A stretch of 64,000 nucleotides of DNA from a virus. Shown here in pieces: positions 3,004 to 37,751 of the stretch; position 1 is the first letter of the stretch; each line of letters opens with the position of its first letter. The stretch spans positions 25,457 to 89,456 of IMG/VR virus record IMGVR_UViG_3300049489_000993; one strand, written 5' to 3'. The position numbers and the translations under genes were made by a program. The notes beneath the pieces were generated by a model. It ran no database searches. It saw only the letters and a program-made list of their open reading frames with translations, and was not told the origin of the DNA.

Positions 3004-4419
3004 TCAGGTGATCGTGATGTCCACAGATTCGTTGGTGCGCGGGATCTGATCGTCGAGCACCACGAGGTTCGCGGCCGGTGCCGTGATCTGAATATCGAAC
3101 ATGCCTTCCACAGCCATCGCGCGCTCAATCAGCTCGCTCTTGATGACGTTGTTCCCGATGCCGAGCCCGTTGACGTAGCTCGCAAGCGCCGCCTTCACGT
3201 CAGCGGCGACAGTCGCTTGTGAGTAGCCGTCAAGGACCGTGATGTCGGCGACGATGACGACGGGATAAATCGTCGGAACGCGCACGATGCCCAGCGTGCC
3301 TGCCGCGCGCCAGCCGGGGTAGTTGCCCCGGTCTAGCGGGTCGCCGTCGAGCACCTTTTGCGCTTCCTGCAAGAGCCCCGTGAAGTAGGTGTACGCGATC
3401 GTGACCGTATCGCCCGCGACGAGCGGGAACCCCAAGTAAATCTGCCCCGATGCAGGATTGAGCGAGTATTGCCCGGCAACCGGTCCCGACGTCACACGCG
3501 TGAGCGTGACCGCTCCGGGGTTCTTGACGGCGGACGGCGTGACGGCATCTTTGATCGGAAAGTTGTTGGTGTAGAGGTACCGCTCGCCGCCAAGCGCGAC
3601 GTCGCCGGGGAACTCGGGTCCAGAGGTAAGCAGCTCCGGTGACACGGTCGCGAGCGTGGATTCTGCGGTGCCGGTGCCGTCGTCGAGGTAGACGTAGAAC
3701 CAGCCCAGGTTGATCGGGTCTTCGAGCACCTTGACGAACACAACGCGTTGCCCACTGGGCAGCTCGATGGTTTTGAGCTTGGTCTCGATGGAGGAGGGCG
3801 TGCAGCGTGAGAGCCCAGCGACGGTGTCGCGGATGCGGGAACGGAATGAATCGTCAGTCTCGGCGTCTTTGCCGCCTACGAAGCCGCTGGGGTTCGACGC
3901 GGTGTCGACGCCGGTGGGGCGCAAGCCTTTGAACTTGGTGAGCGTGGCGGCGGCGACGTTGCCGTTGCTGCCCGCGCTTTCGATCACGGCGGGGATGAGC
4001 CCTGAGATCAACGCGAGGTTGGGAATCGAGCCCGCCGCGGTGGTGACCGCGATGACCTCCGGCGAGGAGCCAGGCACCGCCACGCGCACGCCAGCCGGGA
4101 TGCTCACCAGCGGTCCCGCCACGGCCCGCGAGAACTGCAAGTTGCCCGTCGCCGCCGAGGACGCGATGCGGGTCACCACGACGGGGTTGTAGTCCTTGGC
4201 GCGCTCGTCGAGGTCTTCGCCGGCTGCGCGGTCGATGGAAAACAGATCAATGACGTTCTTGGTCTGGTAGTAGGCGTCGTCCAGCTCGCGCGCGAAGGCC
4301 GCCATGAAGCTCTTGGCGATGGACGTGTCGGTGAGGTCGGAAAGCTCGGAACGCGCGACGAGCGCATCGATCATGCGCTGCAAGATGGTCTCGAAGGTCT
4401 TTGGTACAAACTGTCCCAT
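3004..4419 (-). CDS. Baseplate wedge protein (baseplate J-like)
   Basis: Typical J motifs: AAGEDLDERA, AGSNGNV, GGKDAETDDSFRSRI, C-terminal YVNGLGIGNNVIKSELI. Confidence 0.9.
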   Translation of the reverse strand: MGQFVPKTFETILQRMIDALVARSELSDLTDTSIAKSFMAAFARELDDAYYQTKNVIDLFSIDRAAGEDLDERAKDYNPVVVTRIASSAATGNLQFSRAVAGPLVSIPAGVRVAVPGSSPEVIAVTTAAGSIPNLALISGLIPAVIESAGSNGNVAAATLTKFKGLRPTGVDTASNPSGFVGGKDAETDDSFRSRIRDTVAGLSRCTPSSIETKLKTIELPSGQRVVFVKVLEDPINLGWFYVYLDDGTGTAESTLATVSPELLTSGPEFPGDVALGGERYLYTNNFPIKDAVTPSAVKNPGAVTLTRVTSGPVAGQYSLNPASGQIYLGFPLVAGDTVTIAYTYFTGLLQEAQKVLDGDPLDRGNYPGWRAAGTLGIVRVPTIYPVVIVADITVLDGYSQATVAADVKAALASYVNGLGIGNNVIKSELIERAMAVEGMFDIQITAPAANLVVLDDQIPRTNESVDITIT

Positions 4420-25192: not shown

Positions 25193-26716
25193 TCAGACCT
25201 TCTTCACGATCGCAAGGACGTCGCCAATCTTGAGCTTGAACTCAAAGCGCAGCACAGCCGGCGAGAGTGTAGCGGTTGGGTAGTAGTCATGGTTTGCCCC
25301 GCTGTTGGCCCCTGGGCGCAGCAACGAGCCATTCAAATATACATCATAATCGTTCAAGAATGAGCCACCACTCATATCGGGAAACGCGGCGTCGATGTTG
25401 GCATCGGCGAGCGACACATCCGTGTCCGCGTTCACGTTTGCAGTCACATTGTGATAGGTCTTCGTCTCGTTGCCCGTGGTGTACGCCGAGGTGATCGCTT
25501 GCATGAGCGACACTTCACCGAACGCAGTCTCGAAGGCGCTCCACTCGGCCGCGGTGTCCGAGAGCTTGAGCTGGCCCGCATACGTGGACGCACCCTTGTT
25601 GCCGTCGACGAATGCGAACTCTGCCGCCGCGGTCAAACCGAGGTCGCCGGCTGTGGACGCGACAACACCGTCGGTGACACCCACGGCGATGGGTCGCGTG
25701 CCGCCACTGCGGATGGTGGCGCCAGCATTGAAGTCGTTGACGATCGCGTTCACGTCAAAGGTGTCCACATCGGTGCCGATGCGCGCGATGGTTGCGCCGC
25801 CGCCGCTGCCTTCGATGACGGTCACGAGGTCGGCGTCGAGCGCGTCGCGAATGGACCACTCCACCGCCGCTGCTAGATCAAGATCGGCGTTCGTCGCCAG
25901 CTCGACGGGCGTCGCGCCTTGGTTGTTGTAGGCGTTCTGGCGCGTGACATCGACGCTAGCGGCTTGATCAACGAAGTTGCCATCTTGCGGGAGCCAAGCA
26001 TCCTCGACGACGTTGTCGAACGCGAAGCGGGAGACATAGGCGTAGTTGATCGTCTTGCCGGCGATGTCGCCAACGGGGCAGGCGATGAGGTCGTCAAGGC
26101 CGGCGTTCATGATCACGAACGAGAGCTTCACGCGGTTTCCCGCCGAGGTGTCGTTGAACGCGGCGCCGTCGACACCCGTGCTTTCGTACTGGAGCAGGGC
26201 GAAGATGTCTTTGCCGCTTGATTGCAGCTTTTGGCCTGTCGTGGCGTCGCGCACGACGCAGAGATTCTTTGGCGAGATGGCGTTCTGTCCCGCGACCTCG
26301 ATCAACTCATGCACGTCGAACCCAGCCCCATTGAGTGCCGATTGCGCGACGACGGCGCCCACTTGCGAACCGGCCACCGCAGCAACTTGCGTGGGCGCTT
26401 CACTGCTGGCGACGACGAGGATCTCCCAGTTTTGGGCCGCGGTGACGCCGACGTCGGTAAGCACCTGCACGCGCCGGAGCTGCTTCTTGCCCTCGATGTC
26501 GGTGAGATCGGTGGAGAGGGTAGCGAGGCTGCGCCCAGAGAGCGCGGTGTACCAGTTGGCTTCCCCGAGAGCGCGCTTCATCTGTGAGCGCAGCGCATTC
26601 AAGTCGTCTTCGATGGACACGGCGCCAGATTGCAGTGCGACGCCCGCGGCGACCGTGTCGTCGTACGTGAACGATGGTCGGATTTGCGATTCTTGTCGGA
26701 TGAAAGTGCGGGCCAT
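25193..26716 (-). CDS. Virion structural protein (fibre/collar-like)
   Basis: 507 aa, strong codon bias, AGGAG SD; C-terminal DVYLNGSLLRPG...DYY...LKIGDVL domain. Confidence 0.65.
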   Translation of the reverse strand: MARTFIRQESQIRPSFTYDDTVAAGVALQSGAVSIEDDLNALRSQMKRALGEANWYTALSGRSLATLSTDLTDIEGKKQLRRVQVLTDVGVTAAQNWEILVVASSEAPTQVAAVAGSQVGAVVAQSALNGAGFDVHELIEVAGQNAISPKNLCVVRDATTGQKLQSSGKDIFALLQYESTGVDGAAFNDTSAGNRVKLSFVIMNAGLDDLIACPVGDIAGKTINYAYVSRFAFDNVVEDAWLPQDGNFVDQAASVDVTRQNAYNNQGATPVELATNADLDLAAAVEWSIRDALDADLVTVIEGSGGGATIARIGTDVDTFDVNAIVNDFNAGATIRSGGTRPIAVGVTDGVVASTAGDLGLTAAAEFAFVDGNKGASTYAGQLKLSDTAAEWSAFETAFGEVSLMQAITSAYTTGNETKTYHNVTANVNADTDVSLADANIDAAFPDMSGGSFLNDYDVYLNGSLLRPGANSGANHDYYPTATLSPAVLRFEFKLKIGDVLAIVKKV

Positions 26717-31499: not shown

Positions 31500-31705
31500 G
31501 AACGCCGCAGAACGAGCCGTGTGGGCTCGTGGGCGGGGATGGCGCTTTTGGCGAGGGTTACAGGGACCGGAATCTCAGCGTGGCACCTGGGGCACGAGGT
31601 GAGGCACGTCTCGCCCAGGGCGTCGAATACGAGAATGGGCACGCGCACCTTGAGCTTGTCGCCGCTCTTTTGCAGGAGGTTGTGCGCGCACTCGGGACAC
31701 CGCAT
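31496..31705 (-). CDS. Small zinc-ribbon protein (Mu Com-like)
   Basis: MRCPECAHNLLQK...CPRCHAE, two CxxC pairs in 69 aa; ATG overlaps upstream TAA. Confidence 0.6.
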   Translation of the reverse strand: MRCPECAHNLLQKSGDKLKVRVPILVFDALGETCLTSCPRCHAEIPVPVTLAKSAIPAHEPTRLVLRRS

Positions 31706-34700
31706 TACCCATCATCGTCTGATTCCCCGAGCATGCGCAAAGCGTCGTGGAGCGGGGGAATGGCGCGGCGGCGTTCCATCTCTTGCTCGGCGCGCGCATG
31801 GTTTCGCTTGGAGCCCGCGCGGGCGCCCTCGCGGAGGTCGCGCAGCGTTTGCGGCACGTAGCCCTCGGTGGTGGGCGGCTCGCGCTCGACGCGCACGAAC
31901 AGCGGGCGAAACCGATCTGCGCCCGCCTTGAAACGCTCGCGTGCGTCGGCTTCCTTTTGCTTGTCCTTTTTGCGCTTGTCCTTCTTCGCTTTGAGGGTGA
32001 GGCGGATGCTGTCCGCGGCCTGCATGTTGGACGGCGGGCGCTGTTTCTTGGGGGCGTCTTGGTTGCCGAGCCAAGACATCATGGTCAGGCGCGTGGGGTT
32101 GTTCGCGAGCGCCTGTAAGGCGTCAGGATCGCTTTTCTGCGCATCGGGGTAGGTACGGGGCACCTCGAGCGCGCGAGCGTCTTGGCGGGTGCCCTGGAGC
32201 CGCTCGACGAACTCCTCGAATGGGAACACGGTAACGCCGCCCAGGAAGCGGGGGTCGCTGTAGTGGGTGAGATACGCCGCGACGGCCTCTGACTGGCTTG
32301 GGAAGCCCAGCATGACCTTGTCCTCGTCCTCGTCGGCGAAGGCGCCGTTGGGGCCGCGTTTTTTCATTTGGTGGACGACGTAGACGTTCTCGGCGTTCTC
32401 GTTGGGACCGACGTAGACGTCCACCTTGTCGCCGTCGAGCCCTTCGGTGCGATGAATCTCCCCGTACGGGAACTGCATTTCCGTTTCGCCGTGCTCGCCG
32501 GTGTGCTCGTCGAACCATTGGCGCGTGGAGCCGGCGGGGTTCTCGACGTGGATGTGGAGCCCACGGAAGCGGATGTCGGCCTTGAACAGCGAGAGCTGTC
32601 CCTGCGGGGGAGGTGGCGCCGAGGCGGTGAGCTTGGTGGCGGGATCGGGGATGGGGTGTGCGGCGGGGGTCTCCTGGCGTCCGTACACCGCGTTGTGCGC
32701 CGCGTGCCACTCGGGGCCGAGGGCGGCGACGCGCTTCTCGAACGCCGTGAGGGCGCGCTTGATGGCGGCGTCGTCGCGCCCATATTTCCGCTTGTGCTCG
32801 CGCGGGTCCATGCCCTCGGTCGCGCCCCCACCTACGCGGCGCGCGGTGGCCTTCCCGGCGACGTAGGACAAGAACACTTTGACGCCCGATGCGAGAGTGA
32901 CCGTCTCCTCGGCGCCGGAACCGTCTGTGTGGCTCTTGAAGTCGCCGGGGGCGGGTTGTGTTGGTGGGGACTGTGCCGGAGCCGGAGCCGGAGGTGGTGC
33001 CGCGACCGCTTCCAGCGTGCGCGTGGCGTCCGCGATGGGTGTGGTGGGTGCCGCGGAAGGCGTGCTCGGCGGGGGCTCCACGGCCTTGCCTTGGATCTTC
33101 GCCAGTACGTCTGCCATCGCGAGGGGCTTTTCCATCCACTCGCGCTCGGCGGGCGAGATTTGCTTGCCCTGATTGATCTTCGCGGCGAGGTCGTACTTAC
33201 GACGGAGAATCGCCGTCACGTTCTCGTCGAACTTGTTGTCCTCCGCAACGACCCAGTAGATGTTGACGGCGTTTTGCTGGCCGATGCGGTGTGCTCGGTC
33301 TTCGGCTTGGCCGATGTCGGCAGCGGTCCACGGGAGGTCGTTGAACACGACCTTGTCGGCGGCGGTGAGCGTGGCGCCGACGGCCAGCGACGGGCGCGTC
33401 GAAACGAACACGCGCTTGGGCGAGCCCTCCCGCATGAACTCGGCCTTGGCGGCTTCGCGCACGTCGTCGGATTGCTGGCCGTAGTGCAGGATGGCCTCGT
33501 CACCCAGCTCGGCGACAATGGCTTTCGCGGCGGCGACCGACTCAGAGAACACAAGCACCTTGCTGTCGGAGCTGCCAAGGATCTCCTTCACCATCTCGAC
33601 GGTGGCGGGAGCCTTCGCGAGTGCGAGCTGGCCTCGGATGCGGCTGTATTCGCCGACCGAGGTCGACGGCGCACCGCGACCGCCCGCGCCGTACTCGCCG
33701 ACCGCTTCTGCGTAGAGGTCGGCGTCGTTCTCCTCATCGCGACGCGACTCCCGGAAGTCTTCGGCCGCTTTCGCGTATGCGGCCTTCTGGCGCTCGGTCG
33801 CTCCGGGCGGTGGCGGCTTGGGCTCTCGCACCTCGCCGATATCGGGGGCACCTGGCGCGTAGAGTGTGCTGATCGTGGTCTGCTTCGGCGGAAGGTCTTT
33901 CAGCACCTCAGCCTTCGTGCGCGCGAGGTAGTGGGGGCGCATCTTGTTCCACGCCGCCCCGTGCGTCGCCCCCTTCAACTCTTTCGCCGAGCCCCACAGG
34001 CCCGGCACGACCATCTCGAGCTGCGTGAACAGCTCATCCTTGCGGTTCTTGACGGCGGTGCCGGACATGAGGATGTGGTGCTGCGTGATCTTTGCTACAC
34101 TTTGAATCGCCTTAGTAGTTTTGGCTTTGGGGTTTTTCGCACGGTGACTGTTGTGGACTAGGACGCCACCGACGGAGAAGGATGGGTGCCCAGCCACCTT
34201 GAGATCGTAGTAGTGACCCGCTTCGTTTCCTGGGTAACTTCCCGATTGGTGAACCGTAACGTCGCCCACCCTAACTCCCGCAACTTCTCCTCTTTCTTGA
34301 AATCCTGGCCTTTCCGAGACAAGTGCGAGAAGCCATCCACTTCGACGCTGAGCTTCCGATCTACCAATGCGAGGTCGGCTTTGTAGTTGGTGGGATAGCC
34401 GGGCTGTCGCCGACCAAGGCTGATCGCGTGATTCCACTTCCACGGAGGGCCGAGCGCCTCGAGTAGCGTTCGCTCGGCTTCTGTCGGTCCCGTACCGTTG
34501 CCTCTGCGCACCGTCGGCTTCCAACCCATCGCCTTGAGCGACGCCGACGCCTTGGCGCGCGTCTCTGCACTGCGCATCGGGTTGTTCGCCCTCATCCGCG
34601 CCGAGCACGCCGGGCTCTTCTTCCCAATATTCGCCGCCCGCAGAGCAGCCTTCCCTTCCGGCGTCATCAGGCTCTTCGCGTAGCCCGGACGGCTCATCCT

Positions 34701-36654
34701 CCACTTCGCTGAACAGGAGGTCCCGCAGAAACGATTCTTGCTCCGAGGCGGCGTGAAGGTCTTCCCGCAAAAGGCGCATGGCTTCTGTGTGGCTGACAAG
34801 CGTGTCTCCGGGCTTGAGGTCTTCGGCGTAGATCCAACCTCTCCCGGTGAAGAACGGATGGTGCGCCGAGCACGTCACAGACGTGCTGCCGTACCTTAGC
34901 TCGATGCGATTGGCAAAACCAGACCGCCGAAACGCGCCTAGAACTGGAGCCGGACCGAGAGCCGATAGGACAATGTCGCCGACTTGAATCTGATCGATAC
35001 GACGAGGGCCGGTCGGCGTGTCAACGAGCGTCTCAGGACCGAAGCATTCGTCGACAATCAGTGTATCAAAGCCCGCCGCTTTGAGATAGGGCATGAACTT
35101 CTCGAGGCTTTCGTAGTTGACCGTCACGAGATTCTTGCCCGAGAGGTCCATCAGGCCCTTCTCGCCGCCCGCGTGCATCGCCGCGAGGAACGCGGCAGGG
35201 TCATCGATCGACGCAAGGTCGGTGCCCTTCTTGCCTTTGCCCGTAAGCAGATCCTTGGACCGAAGCTCCTTCGCATCGAAGTGCCCTGGGAAGAACTTGT
35301 GGGCTTCTTGAATCCAAGTGCGGCGCACAACCTTCGGCACGACGACGATCGCCTTCTTGTTGTTCTTGGCGACCCACGCAAGCGCCTGAAGCGTTTTGCC
35401 AAGCCCCATTTCGTCGCCGACGATGGCGTTGCCGTCGTTGCCGTCGAGGAAGCGCACCATCGCGTTCTGGTACGGCTTGAGCGCAAAGCCTGGCGCGAGC
35501 TTGGCTTGCACCTCGGGAATCGGGGCCTCGGCGGCGGCTTTGTCGCGCGCGGCTTTGTCGGCGGCGTCTTTGATCTTGGGATCGAGCACGAACGTGAAGT
35601 GCGGGAGTGCGGCGCGGAGCTTCTCGAGCGCCTCCTCCATGAGCGCGTGCGAGAACGTGGAGCGGCTCCAGGTGCGGGGATCCGCTTCGATGATGCCGGT
35701 GAGCTTGCCGGTTTTGTTCGACATGATCTCGTTGAAGTCGCGTGAGAATGTCGAATAGAACACAAAGCGGCCGTCGTCCTCCTGCACAAGCGCGATCGTG
35801 TCGCGGGCGCGCTTGTTCACGATGGCCGAAGCGACTTCGTACACGTCGACGGGCCGTGGGGGCGTCGGCGGTTGTGCGACGGGCGTGGCAACGGGGGCCT
35901 GCTCCACGATCTCCGGCTTCTCGGGGATGTGGATCTTGATCCCACGCTTCTCGAGCGCCGCGACGTAGGCGCTTGGATCTTGCGCCACGGGGTGTGTCGG
36001 TGGGACCGTCTCGCGCGCGGCGGCACCGCGCTCCCCGTTCCAGCGGAACCCGTGCGTGCGGTGAATGTCCTTGAACGCGGCGAACTTGTCGCCGAGGTAC
36101 TGCGCCGTGCGGATGTGCAAGCCCCCGTTGGACGTCCACTGGCCGACGAGGTCGGCGTCCGCAGTTGCCGGCGGCGGGTCCGCGAGGCCCACGCGGATGA
36201 ACGCCTCGAGCCCGTAGTGCCCGACGAGCTGCCGGCGGTACTTGCGCAGCATCCGGCGCATGCGCTCGACGTCTCCGCGGGCGCTTCCCCACGACTGATA
36301 GTCGAGCTTGTTGAAGCCAATGTCGTTCTGCTCGCGGACCTCGTCGACGGAATGCAACGCGTCGCCCATGCGCTCGAGGAGAGCGACCGCTTCCGGGTCC
36401 GCGTGACGCTCCTTGAACTCGTGGTGCGCCTGCTTGTCCTCGACGACCTCCCACTCGCCCTTCGCGTTCTTGCGGTGGAGCTTGCCGTCGGCCCATTGGT
36501 GGACGGTGCCGGCGACAGCGGCTTCCGCTTTCGCGATGGCGTCCTCGACATACAGGCGGATGGGGCTGTCGGCAGAGTCACTCATACGGGGCCTCCGCGT
36601 CGGAAACCCTAACGAGCTTGGACCTATAGTCTCAAGCGTGAGACGTCCAGTCAT
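31705..36654 (-). CDS. Large polyvalent protein: SNF2/SWI2 helicase (intein-containing) + inorganic pyrophosphatase domain
   Basis: LKPYQ, GDEMGLGKT, IVDE|SH, MSGTAVKN, KVLVFS, DLPWTAADIGQAEDRAHRIGQ; C-terminal GLHIHVENPAGSTR...YGEIHRTEGLDGDKVDVYVG...DEDKVMLGF (InPase). Start either ATG 36654 (ATGA overlap) or ATG 36585 (GGAGG SD). Confidence 0.85.
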   Translation of the reverse strand: MTGRLTLETIGPSSLGFPTRRPRMSDSADSPIRLYVEDAIAKAEAAVAGTVHQWADGKLHRKNAKGEWEVVEDKQAHHEFKERHADPEAVALLERMGDALHSVDEVREQNDIGFNKLDYQSWGSARGDVERMRRMLRKYRRQLVGHYGLEAFIRVGLADPPPATADADLVGQWTSNGGLHIRTAQYLGDKFAAFKDIHRTHGFRWNGERGAAARETVPPTHPVAQDPSAYVAALEKRGIKIHIPEKPEIVEQAPVATPVAQPPTPPRPVDVYEVASAIVNKRARDTIALVQEDDGRFVFYSTFSRDFNEIMSNKTGKLTGIIEADPRTWSRSTFSHALMEEALEKLRAALPHFTFVLDPKIKDAADKAARDKAAAEAPIPEVQAKLAPGFALKPYQNAMVRFLDGNDGNAIVGDEMGLGKTLQALAWVAKNNKKAIVVVPKVVRRTWIQEAHKFFPGHFDAKELRSKDLLTGKGKKGTDLASIDDPAAFLAAMHAGGEKGLMDLSGKNLVTVNYESLEKFMPYLKAAGFDTLIVDECFGPETLVDTPTGPRRIDQIQVGDIVLSALGPAPVLGAFRRSGFANRIELRYGSTSVTCSAHHPFFTGRGWIYAEDLKPGDTLVSHTEAMRLLREDLHAASEQESFLRDLLFSEVEDEPSGLREEPDDAGREGCSAGGEYWEEEPGVLGADEGEQPDAQCRDARQGVGVAQGDGLEADGAQRQRYGTDRSRANATRGARPSVEVESRDQPWSATARLSHQLQSRPRIGRSEAQRRSGWLLALVSERPGFQERGEVAGVRVGDVTVHQSGSYPGNEAGHYYDLKVAGHPSFSVGGVLVHNSHRAKNPKAKTTKAIQSVAKITQHHILMSGTAVKNRKDELFTQLEMVVPGLWGSAKELKGATHGAAWNKMRPHYLARTKAEVLKDLPPKQTTISTLYAPGAPDIGEVREPKPPPPGATERQKAAYAKAAEDFRESRRDEENDADLYAEAVGEYGAGGRGAPSTSVGEYSRIRGQLALAKAPATVEMVKEILGSSDSKVLVFSESVAAAKAIVAELGDEAILHYGQQSDDVREAAKAEFMREGSPKRVFVSTRPSLAVGATLTAADKVVFNDLPWTAADIGQAEDRAHRIGQQNAVNIYWVVAEDNKFDENVTAILRRKYDLAAKINQGKQISPAEREWMEKPLAMADVLAKIQGKAVEPPPSTPSAAPTTPIADATRTLEAVAAPPPAPAPAQSPPTQPAPGDFKSHTDGSGAEETVTLASGVKVFLSYVAGKATARRVGGGATEGMDPREHKRKYGRDDAAIKRALTAFEKRVAALGPEWHAAHNAVYGRQETPAAHPIPDPATKLTASAPPPPQGQLSLFKADIRFRGLHIHVENPAGSTRQWFDEHTGEHGETEMQFPYGEIHRTEGLDGDKVDVYVGPNENAENVYVVHQMKKRGPNGAFADEDEDKVMLGFPSQSEAVAAYLTHYSDPRFLGGVTVFPFEEFVERLQGTRQDARALEVPRTYPDAQKSDPDALQALANNPTRLTMMSWLGNQDAPKKQRPPSNMQAADSIRLTLKAKKDKRKKDKQKEADARERFKAGADRFRPLFVRVEREPPTTEGYVPQTLRDLREGARAGSKRNHARAEQEMERRRAIPPLHDALRMLGESDDDG
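34150..35046 (-). mobile_element. Intein (299 aa) in SNF2 Walker B (DE|SH), without in-frame endonuclease
   Basis: Begins CFGPETLVDT, block B TCSAHHPFFT, ends YDLKVAGHPSFSVGGVLVHN|S; removal restores LIVDESHRAKN. Confidence 0.9.
34158..34799 (-). CDS. Zn-finger + DUF559/Vsr-like endonuclease overprinted in +1 frame inside the intein
   Basis: CAFCGKTF...RFCGTSC zinc finger; basic helical NNPMRSAETRAKASASLK segment; nuclease core PTEAERTLLEAL...YKADLAL...KLSVEVDGFSH...D...LRELGWATLRFTNREV; GGAG 6 nt before TTG; TAG stop. Confidence 0.8.
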   Translation of the reverse strand: MSATQKPCAFCGKTFTPPRSKNRFCGTSCSAKWRMSRPGYAKSLMTPEGKAALRAANIGKKSPACSARMRANNPMRSAETRAKASASLKAMGWKPTVRRGNGTGPTEAERTLLEALGPPWKWNHAISLGRRQPGYPTNYKADLALVDRKLSVEVDGFSHLSRKGQDFKKEEKLRELGWATLRFTNREVTQETKRVTTTISRWLGTHPSPSVAS

Positions 36655-37751
36655 GGGGTAGCCTTCCACAGTAGGAGCTTGGGCGGTTCCGTCCAGCGTT
36701 TGCGGCGAGGGCTCTTGGGGACATCTTCGGCGGTCGCGGACGCCGGTGGGTGGAATGTGCCTATGGGCTCGCCGACTTTGAGCCCGGTGCTGTGGCCGGC
36801 GCGCTTGCGCCCGGCTTGGACCGATTGCCCTTTGGGGAGCATGCGGGCGCCGCGGCCTTCGCTCTTGGCGGTCTCTGCTTCGTCCTCGCTCTCGGCGGGG
36901 GCTTCTGGTACTAGCTCACCATTGAGCCAGCGTAACCCCTTGGAAACGCTCACCATTTCGCAGGCACACCAAGGATGAACTCCCTCAACCGTGGCGCGCA
37001 GGTTCTTGCCCTTGCGCCCGACATTGGAGCCGTGGGCACGCAGCTCGCCGATCGTGAAGATGCGTGGGTTGCCGTTGGCGTCCAGGTACGCGGCTCGGCA
37101 CGCGCTACAGGCCCCTGGGGAAGGGATCTTGCTCACGCCCGCCCCGGAGCCGCCCCGTTTCTCGATCGTGGCTGCAATGCCTTCCTGCATCGCGTTGTTG
37201 ACCTCCGTGGTGGCGATGCGCTGCCAGTCGCGAGTCCAGTTGCCCATGGAGTGCCCGAGGTCGCTCTTGAGCTGCTCGATGGTTTCGCGTTTGGCGATGG
37301 CGGCGGCGGTCTTGTCGCGGATGATCTCTACCATCCGCTCCGGCGTGAGGTTGGCCTCGGCGCCGGTGACCTCGGCCATGACCTGCCCGGCGACGCGCGC
37401 GCCGAGCCCGACCACGTACTGCCCCGCGTGCTTCTGCGCCATGTCGACCGAGGCGCGCTCTTGCTCTGACAGGGCGAGCGGGAGCTTGTTCTCCGCAACG
37501 AGCTGGGCGACCTCGGCGACGGTCTTGGTGGCGAGCTTGGGGTCACGCAGGATGGCCAAGAGCTGCCCATAGGCGAAGGGGTCTCGGATCAAGTCCTCGG
37601 AGGAGGGCACCTTGATGCCGGCGGCTTGGAGGTCTTTCAGGAGATCGGGCGGGAGCGAGCGTGCGCCGAATACGGCGAGGGCGATGGCGGCGTGGTGGCG
37701 GGCAATGGTCGCGCGCACCCGTTCGAGTTGTTCCGCCGACCACAAGGGCAT
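36651..37751 (-). CDS. Head morphogenesis protein (Mu gpF / SPP1 gp7-like)
   Basis: RDWQRIATTEVNNAMQEG...ACSAC...HPWCAC motif. Confidence 0.8.
   Translation of the reverse strand: MPLWSAEQLERVRATIARHHAAIALAVFGARSLPPDLLKDLQAAGIKVPSSEDLIRDPFAYGQLLAILRDPKLATKTVAEVAQLVAENKLPLALSEQERASVDMAQKHAGQYVVGLGARVAGQVMAEVTGAEANLTPERMVEIIRDKTAAAIAKRETIEQLKSDLGHSMGNWTRDWQRIATTEVNNAMQEGIAATIEKRGGSGAGVSKIPSPGACSACRAAYLDANGNPRIFTIGELRAHGSNVGRKGKNLRATVEGVHPWCACEMVSVSKGLRWLNGELVPEAPAESEDEAETAKSEGRGARMLPKGQSVQAGRKRAGHSTGLKVGEPIGTFHPPASATAEDVPKSPRRKRWTEPPKLLLWKATP

Follow-up and report, generated by a model that had tools for sequence, protein, structure and literature searches.

Intein homing endonucleases are normally in-frame domains of the excised intein, and the locus described here raises the question of where the endonuclease lies when the intein frame itself appears to encode none. 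The locus sits in a 64,000-nucleotide (nt) stretch of viral DNA, referred to throughout as the window (positions 25,457 to 89,456 of the IMG/VR virus record IMGVR_UViG_3300049489_000993, which is 89,456 bp long and 88% complete by CheckV). On the minus strand of the window, which carries all features described below unless stated otherwise, a gene for an SNF2-type phage helicase precursor (nt. 31705–36669) is interrupted in its DExH box by a 299-amino acid (a.a) intein (nt. 34150–35046). An original prediction, made from the sequence, proposed that the DNA of this intein is read twice, with a nuclease overprinted on it in the +1 frame of the same strand (nt. 34158–34799). The analyses below support this double reading of a contiguous intein as real, with selection acting both on its own frame and on the +1 nuclease frame of the same strand.

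The intein frame

Judged by its motifs and its AlphaFold2 (AF2) model, the insert at nt. 34150–35046 is a contiguous class-1 intein with a predicted HINT fold (Cys1…His298-Asn299, with Ser+1 next), and it would be expected to splice. The splicing blocks that the original prediction described as intact are all present: Cys1 directly follows the …LIVDE of the N-extein, block B reads S60-A-H-H63 (consensus TxxH), and the C-terminal …VLVHN is followed by the Ser+1 of SHRAKN (HN/S; here and below a slash marks the insertion point or splice junction). The Thr of block B is replaced by Ser in the window intein and in L001 to L003 (L-numbers denote relative loci from IMG/VR or genomes). Among 33 related inteins, C1, T6 and H63 are invariant, and the alignment also shows V297, H298 and N299 to be invariant.

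The N-terminal splicing region (residues 1–115, nt. 34702–35046), which comprises blocks A, B and N4 plus two helices, is confidently predicted by AF2, with a per-residue confidence (pLDDT) of at least 81 over residues 1–100 and of 75–93 over residues 101–120. The C-terminal splicing region (residues 252–299, nt. 34150–34293), which holds blocks F and G (…YYDLKVAGHPSFSVGGVLVHN), reaches 80–97, and pLDDT is mostly >90 across residues 1–115 and 252–299. A Foldseek search with the intein model returned 34 intein/HINT matches at E ≤ 1e-3, headed by gp41-1 (E 9.6e-8, 32% identity), which was also the sole match when the intein sequence was compared to the PDB using phmmer (E 3.6e-6).

Between these two regions lies a linker (residues 121–251, nt. 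34294–34686), the part that had been described as acidic low-complexity sequence where an endonuclease normally sits. This description holds, given that the translation in the intein frame is acidic or Gly/Arg-rich low-complexity sequence and that AF2 modeling of 33 related inteins gave pLDDT <50 and zero secondary structure for the linker. A Pfam scan of the intein frame produced Hint-type matches only and no endonuclease domain. The few linker residues that are conserved (‘LQ’, ‘RSG’) reflect nuclease-frame motifs (NYK, EVDG) written over the same DNA. We also noted a subgroup of related inteins ending in Ser-Asn (…LVSN/C or S) rather than His-Asn, including L075, L077 and many genome loci (e.g., L127, L131, L134 and L149), mostly within very large host proteins of about 1100–2900 a.a.

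The overprinted nuclease

The +1 frame (nt. 34158–34799) encodes a 213-a.a protein made up of a zinc ribbon and a Vsr/EDxHD (DUF559) domain, a putative homing endonuclease whose TAG stop codon (nt. 34158–34160) falls in the Leu-Val codons of intein block G (VLVHN). The zinc finger and DUF559/Vsr-type core read from the sequence by the original prediction were borne out by profile and structure searches. The protein matched DUF559 (PF04480) in Pfam with 45.2 bits against a cut-off of 20.6 (E 9.5e-12), a PDB sequence search identified the DUF559 protein 3hrl (E 1.2e-6), and 28 homologous proteins were found in a set of 5.8 billion, with 34–50% identity over up to 96% of the length.

The Cys4 zinc ribbon (C8-x2-C11…C25-x3-C29, nt. 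34713–34778; pLDDT 89–96) lies over intein residues of about 90–111. Its C8, C25 and C29 are at least 90% conserved in the homologue alignment, and it is matched by the zinc-finger segment of a PHROG HNH endonuclease (E 1.2e-5). The catalytic domain (residues 107–205, nt. 34185–34481), delimited using Pfam, the PDB search, the alignment and Foldseek, contains residues that are invariant across an alignment of 23 sequences (Y139, D142, E153, D155, G156, H159, D166 and K169), and all invariant catalytic and zinc residues are intact in the window nuclease. The AF2 model (pLDDT 88.9) shows the zinc ribbon, a helical linker and an alpha/beta domain, for which Foldseek ranked 3hrl first and the I-Bth0305I catalytic domain (3r3p) second, both with a TM(target) of 0.75 and a probability of 1.0, followed by the E. 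coli Vsr (1cw0/1vsr). The small size of the domain keeps the E-values of these matches modest (2.5e-3 to 0.1). On its sequence matches and predicted fold, the +1 product is a Vsr/EDxHD-type nuclease.

The open reading frame (ORF) of the nuclease is not confined to the linker. It shares codons with the folded splicing parts of the intein on both sides, ~33 on the N-side, where the zinc ribbon is written over the intein helices at residues 86–115, and ~45 on the C-side, where the final ~37 codons of the catalytic domain overlap blocks F/G.

Conservation of the layout across relatives

Scanning IMG/VR with a pattern derived from the nuclease alignment yielded 377 relatives, and the gene layout was read in the best 80 of these; for the GTDB prokaryotic genome collection it was read in the best 80 of 219 matches. 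The nuclease ORF was wholly contained in a same-strand ORF of 490–2875 a.a in 76–78 of the 80 IMG/VR loci, always in the +1 frame of the host, and the loci with this nested layout span a GC content of 0.28–0.70. Among the GTDB loci, 67 of 80 (bacterial or archaeal, from many phyla) displayed the same arrangement. The layout is present in about 143 loci besides the window (IMG/VR and genomes combined), in keeping with the nested, dual-coded element originally proposed.

Intein borders could be defined in 69 loci, including the window, and the intein nearly always starts with ‘CF…T’ right after the Walker-B Asp-Glu. In all but one of these (68/69), the nuclease stop codon occurs 8–65 nt before the intein end, inside blocks F/G. 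The host genes comprise SNF2 helicases (DE/SHRxKN), other helicases (DE/SSILK, DE/CHH) and further genes resembling, by motif only, terminase ATPases (ADE/CQxM). In L060 and L004 (L004:3824–4897), the nuclease ORF reads past the intein end into the C-extein, by 13 nt in the former and much further in the latter.

Cultured phages with finished genomes are among the relatives, including Vibrio phage CP-T1 (gp10), Corynebacterium phage phi673 (gp43), Pseudomonas phage MR14 and many Vibrio lentus phages. In these, the nuclease homologue is unannotated inside an annotated helicase coding sequence, just as it had been anticipated that standard annotation would miss it. For the window itself, a Logan contig from a freshwater-sediment run (13x) is identical over nt. 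33900–35300 with no indels, although this run is possibly the source sample and so offers weak independent support.

Selection on the two frames

Codon usage and substitution patterns follow the nuclease frame in the central part of the intein. The GC content peaks (0.7–0.9) at host codon position 1, equivalent to nuclease position 3, over intein residues ~90–260, confirming the earlier remark that G/C-ending codons follow the +1 frame centrally; in the exteins, the peak is at host codon position 3 (0.83). A substitution spectrum was compiled from 15 pairs with 70–79% nucleotide identity. Mismatches peak at host position 3 (43%) in the N-terminal splicing part, at host position 1 (nuclease position 3; 49%) in the central overlap, and at both positions (38% and 41%) in the last 45 intein codons.

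The ratio of nonsynonymous to synonymous divergence (dN/dS) was calculated pairwise with the Nei–Gojobori method (NG86). Median values in the overlap, drawn from pairs that are divergent (dS about 1) and not independent, differed between the frames, at 0.20 for the nuclease and 1.5 for the host, the latter being high because the host synonymous sites are pinned; the host-frame value in the N-terminal splicing part was 0.31. For the window nuclease, the ratio was 0.23 against L001 and 0.19 against L002. Mean pairwise amino-acid identity in the nuclease frame was about twice that in the host frame.

Synonymous shuffles that kept the nuclease protein and codon usage fixed left the host frame of the window free of stops in none of 1000 trials (mean of 5.7 stops), and across 65 loci the median stop-free fraction was likewise 0, while the reverse shuffle test returned 0.017. 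Around 97% of loci keep the nuclease frame open, down to a GC content of 0.28; an accumulation of stops in this frame had been put forward as the sign that would speak against a gene, and only 2 of 80 homologues carry any, one stop each. The shuffle, substitution and dN/dS results together indicate that the nuclease frame is selected for its protein, as originally suggested, and that the host frame in the middle of the intein is selected to stay open. The accompanying suggestion that the intein frame is only kept stop-free is accurate for residues ~121–251 and does not extend to either end, where folded splicing parts overlap the nuclease ORF. With the Pfam match, the 28 homologues, the conserved layout and the shuffle tests combined, the second gene is far beyond chance.

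Translation start of the nuclease

The putative translation start of the nuclease (nt. 34797–34809) consists of a GGAG (nt. 34806–34809), a 6-nt spacer and a TTG codon (nt. 34797–34799). A TTG at the same position, 7 codons before the first Cys of the nuclease, recurs in L001, L002, L008, L010 and L016 (GC 0.36–0.64), and is preceded by Shine-Dalgarno-like motifs. Those of L001 and L016 are strong (GGAGG, AGGAG), and those of L002, L008 and L010 are weak (AAGG, GGGA). In every locus, an in-frame start codon, often with a Shine-Dalgarno motif, occurs before the first Cys, and the nearest nuclease-frame stop lies 5–150 codons upstream of this Cys at no conserved distance. On the basis of the conserved TTG and Shine-Dalgarno site, our working inference is that the nuclease is translated by internal initiation at this TTG on the helicase mRNA.

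In L011, L013, L014, L019, L020 and L033, the best start preceded by a Shine-Dalgarno motif is an ATG located 55 codons ahead of the first Cys, near intein residue 39, and the resulting N-terminal extension of the nuclease would also overlap intein blocks B and N4. Hairpins have been drawn as regulatory elements upstream of the endonucleases of fractured genes; a counterpart in the window was considered and found no support (z 0.61 at the TTG).

Empty sites, flanking tracts and other states of the family

The insertion site is formed by the final two codons of the N-extein (Asp-Glu, nt. 35047–35052), in the Walker-B motif, or helicase motif II (DE/SH). An alignment-based search of IMG/VR yielded 27 homologues of the C-extein, all SNF2 genes (a single-sequence search gave no matches), of which 24 lack the intein and read DE/SHR(A/M)KN uninterrupted at the exact insertion point. 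The two closest homologues (69–71% identity, GC 0.68–0.69) are among the intein-free genes and read IVDE/SHRAKNPKAKTT, and the intein was present only in the contigs of L001, L002 and L026. Run X2, from another study, contributed contigs of 151–258 nt on the extein flanks only, none of which spans the junction, so they are silent on the intein-less allele.

On both sides of the window intein, the GC content at third codon positions (GC3) drops in what is probably a co-conversion tract, to 0.40 in the first 20 codons of the C-extein (nt. 34090–34149), compared to 0.95 further out, and to 0.65 in the last 20 codons of the N-extein (nt. 35047–35106), compared to 0.90 further out. The codons of these flanks differ synonymously from those of intein-free relatives. 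Such low-GC3 flanks are probably what co-conversion from a lower-GC donor would leave, and they might also alter the nuclease’s own target. Together with the empty alleles at the exact site, the foreign GC3 of the flanks fits active homing.

Two free-standing relatives of the nuclease were observed. In L052 (L052:3992–6455), a 217-a.a relative ends 11 nt into an apparent (by motif only) intein-less gene for the terminase large subunit, which keeps the GDE/LAQM Walker-B site that is occupied by an intein in other loci. In L023 (L023:3869–4672), a 267-a.a relative has no host ORF around it, and its host-equivalent frame retains a decayed remnant of intein block F, broken by stops (…VESFEVLEQGH…YFFNFEIK…); judging by this remnant, the L023 copy may have escaped from an intein. 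Two further loci, L022 and L046, each have one stop in the nuclease frame just past the first CxxC (~4030–4060 in each) and an open intein frame ending in ..LVHN/C, which reflects either early decay of the nuclease or the use of a downstream start. A search for longer proteins gave a single in-frame form, P0032 (a 1140-a.a protein from a Logan contig), a blank in that search being weak evidence. P0032 is a UvrD-like helicase with a Walker-B intein (VVVDE/CF…LLVHN/C) carrying a Vsr-type domain in frame and no zinc ribbon, and it has a second intein further along (…DDRQ/CIPGD…IVHN/C). No fractured form with a split intein was present among the 160 loci examined.

Proposed mode of action and alternative explanations

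We consider it very probable that the locus is a mobile unit of intein and homing endonuclease, with two proteins read from one stretch of DNA. In frame 0, the helicase precursor would be translated through the 299-a.a intein, which would then excise itself and join …IVDE to SHRAKN…, restoring helicase motif II. The middle of the intein (residues ~121–251) would serve only as a flexible linker without stops, in the loop where endonucleases are usually inserted. In frame +1, ribosomes would most likely start at the TTG at nt. 34799, with the GGAG 6 nt upstream, to produce the separate 213-a.a protein. This nuclease would most likely cut intein-less helicase alleles at or near the DE/SH-coding site in co-infecting related phages, following which recombinational repair would copy the whole unit along with short flanking extein tracts.

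Several observations weigh against this account. No sigma-70-like promoter or terminator was found in a scan of nt. 33900–35400, and the RNA around the TTG start folds no more stably than shuffled sequences (z 0.61); with no internal promoter and no special RNA structure, translation of the nuclease would have to begin on the helicase mRNA in competition with ribosomes already elongating along it. RNA sequencing runs containing the window sequence were absent among the runs listed. The dN/dS values carry the divergence and non-independence of their pairs, and, with regard to the donor, the window flanks are not closer to those of L001 or L002 than to those of intein-free relatives. The window copy could also be a fixed element that is no longer homing, despite its intact catalytic residues.

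Could the nuclease ORF instead be a relic, left when a free-standing homing gene landed in a mini-intein and now silent or inactive, so that only the intein frame matters? The stops in L022 and L046 (2 of 80), each with the intein frame open, imply that nuclease decay is tolerated, and both the promoter scan and the lack of a listed RNA run with the sequence are in line with a silent gene. Against this, the catalytic and zinc residues of the window copy are all intact, the nuclease-frame dN/dS is about 0.2 (including the two comparisons of the window with L001 and L002, at 0.23 and 0.19), and substitutions peak at nuclease position 3. Moreover, the TTG is at the same position in five relatives with a Shine-Dalgarno-like motif ahead, and the frame is open in about 97% of loci even at a GC content of 0.28. 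A relic is, in our view, unlikely. The nuclease might alternatively be reached by programmed +1 frameshifting from the intein frame, which would give a fusion of N-extein, N-intein and nuclease ending at the block G TAG. No stop occurs in the nuclease frame over the 25 codons that precede the TTG, so a shift in this interval would enter the nuclease, and internal initiation within a translated ORF is expected to be inefficient. We nevertheless regard frameshifting as very improbable, given that every locus has an in-frame start before the first Cys (often with a Shine-Dalgarno motif, and with the TTG recurring in five relatives), that the upstream nuclease-frame stop lies 5–150 codons away with no conserved distance, that the free-standing copies in L023 and L052 start with ATG at the equivalent place, and that there is no stable RNA structure nearby.

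An artefact, by which two compensating indels displaced an ordinary in-frame endonuclease, had been named at the outset as the finding that would overturn dual coding, and we give it next to no credence. In-frame Vsr-type intein endonucleases can exist, as the one case of P0032 illustrates. The same offset is, however, seen in about 143 independent loci (well over 100) as well as in the finished genomes of cultured phages, and the 13x Logan contig is identical with no indels. In addition, the last ~37 codons of the catalytic domain overlap blocks F/G, so no indel pair could put both in one frame. Sequencing or assembly artefact is excluded by these comparative data.

Host gene and genomic context

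The host gene (nt. 31705–36669) is a 1654-a.a ORF with Pfam matches to SNF2-rel_dom, Helicase_C and InPase. With the intein counted in, the SNF2 helicase core spans residues ~400–1130, and the InPase domain (PF18823) is C-terminal (residues 1363–1491). A Pfam search of the ~400 N-terminal residues gave no matches. The start of the host ORF overlaps the 3′ end of an upstream ORF (nt. 36651–37751). Within the helicase gene, alternative-frame ORFs of 338–597 a.a, typical for high GC, occur at nt. 35201–36496 and nt. 32123–33139 (both minus strand) and nt. 32368–34161 (plus strand). ORF length was considered as support for a second gene and rejected: the window has a GC content of 65% and long alternative-frame ORFs abound at this value, so length is no evidence for the nuclease gene.

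Relation to known systems

The concept of out-of-frame or antisense intein endonucleases is not new. Gogarten-lab preprints trace the idea of an out-of-frame intein endonuclease to Gorbalenya 1998. In actinophages, inteins have been described with antisense LAGLIDADG genes, antisense VSR-like genes (probably EDxHD) and same-strand ‘frame 3’ endonuclease-VII-like genes, located in DNA polymerase, minor capsid, terminase and thymidylate synthase, and free-standing endonuclease genes invading inteins have been proposed as their origin (Gosselin, Arsenault & Gogarten, bioRxiv 10.1101/2025.01.02.630785). A cyanobacterial dnaX intein bears an out-of-frame LAGLIDADG endonuclease with low dN/dS in the endonuclease frame and inflated dN/dS in the intein frame (Phillips, DeSimone & Gogarten, bioRxiv 10.64898/2026.09.14.751524). 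A further published case is an HNH endonuclease hidden out of frame within an insertion in a phage methylase (PMC11855218). The window resembles the published overlapping-ORF inteins in having a contiguous intein, no folded endonuclease in the intein’s own frame and an endonuclease written over the same DNA, and it shares its dN/dS pattern with the dnaX intein. The proposed origin, a mini-intein entered by a free-standing endonuclease gene, is also common to both. It differs in its VSR/EDxHD nuclease with a zinc ribbon, encoded on the sense strand in frame +1, and its family differs in that the intein sits at the Walker-B DE of helicases and terminase-like ATPases and in having an ORF that overlaps folded splicing blocks at both ends. 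Such layouts are called rare in the Gogarten-lab preprints, whereas they are the usual state in the window family, which has hundreds of members. Full-text literature searches, in which subscription journals were thinly covered and which are not proof of absence, turned up no description of a Vsr/EDxHD gene in the +1 frame of a contiguous intein on the same strand, and none of how often this arrangement occurs at Walker-B sites.

A second comparison is with fractured genes, in which an endonuclease gene of the Vsr-like (EDxHD) or GIY-YIG type lies between the halves of a split intein, its 3′ end overlapping the C-intein coding region by 6–69 bp; gp41-1 is one such locus (Dassa et al. 2009, PMC2677866). 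The window locus shares with these its phage context, the Vsr-like nuclease, the same place in the intein and the overlap with the C-intein (about 136 nt in the window). The link to fractured genes drawn by the original prediction is strengthened by the only solved sequence relative of the intein being gp41-1, itself a fractured-gene split intein. Both the intein and the nuclease of the window have their relatives in fractured genes. The window locus is nonetheless not a fractured gene, as the host frame is open throughout, with no stop and restart, both here and in about 143 relatives, and the endonuclease is overprinted rather than intergenic. Since the host frame is never interrupted, splicing would occur in cis.

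The nuclease itself can be compared to I-Bth0305I, the founding EDxHD homing endonuclease, which resides in a group I intron of recA (PDB 3R3P; Taylor et al. 2011, PMC3239194). The two share the catalytic fold (TM of 0.75 to the target, root-mean-square deviation of 2.7 Å), the E, D, H and D residues, and a layout with the DNA-binding region at the N-terminus and the catalytic domain at the C-terminus. The window nuclease differs in being overprinted on an intein, in its sequence, with only ~20% identity, and in its N-terminal zinc ribbon, which has no counterpart in the 3R3P structure.

Implications for the family

The family as a whole is of more interest than the single window: its frame offset is conserved, its nuclease gene extends over folded splicing blocks, and it is linked to gp41-1 and to fractured genes. 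A hidden, unannotated gene is added to many phage and prophage genomes, well-known cultured phages among them. Routine annotation calls such elements endonuclease-less ‘mini-inteins with a long linker’, and intein censuses thus undercount active homing elements. The family also offers a large natural collection of gene pairs overlapping on one strand, in which the function of each frame is known and the folded parts of both overlap. Tractable hosts are available (e.g., for the Corynebacterium glutamicum phage phi673), and the connection to gp41-1 and the fractured-gene Vsr makes both the entry of endonucleases into inteins and the origin of split inteins testable. In practical terms, the family is predicted to offer compact inteins related to the fast gp41-1 and new site-specific nucleases for ATPase Walker-B sequences.

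As a tentative and rather doubtful proposal, overprinting in the +1 frame of the sense strand may, rather than being a rare accident, represent the main and stable state of a large intein/Vsr family targeting Walker-B sites, from which fractured genes of the gp41-1 type, the free-standing Vsr genes (L023 and L052) and the in-frame P0032 would be derived. With the nuclease written over the intein of an essential ATPase, any deletion that removes it must stay in frame and spare the splicing blocks. If this proposal is true, selection on the host gene would shield the nuclease from deletion, slowing the decay phase of the ‘homing cycle’.

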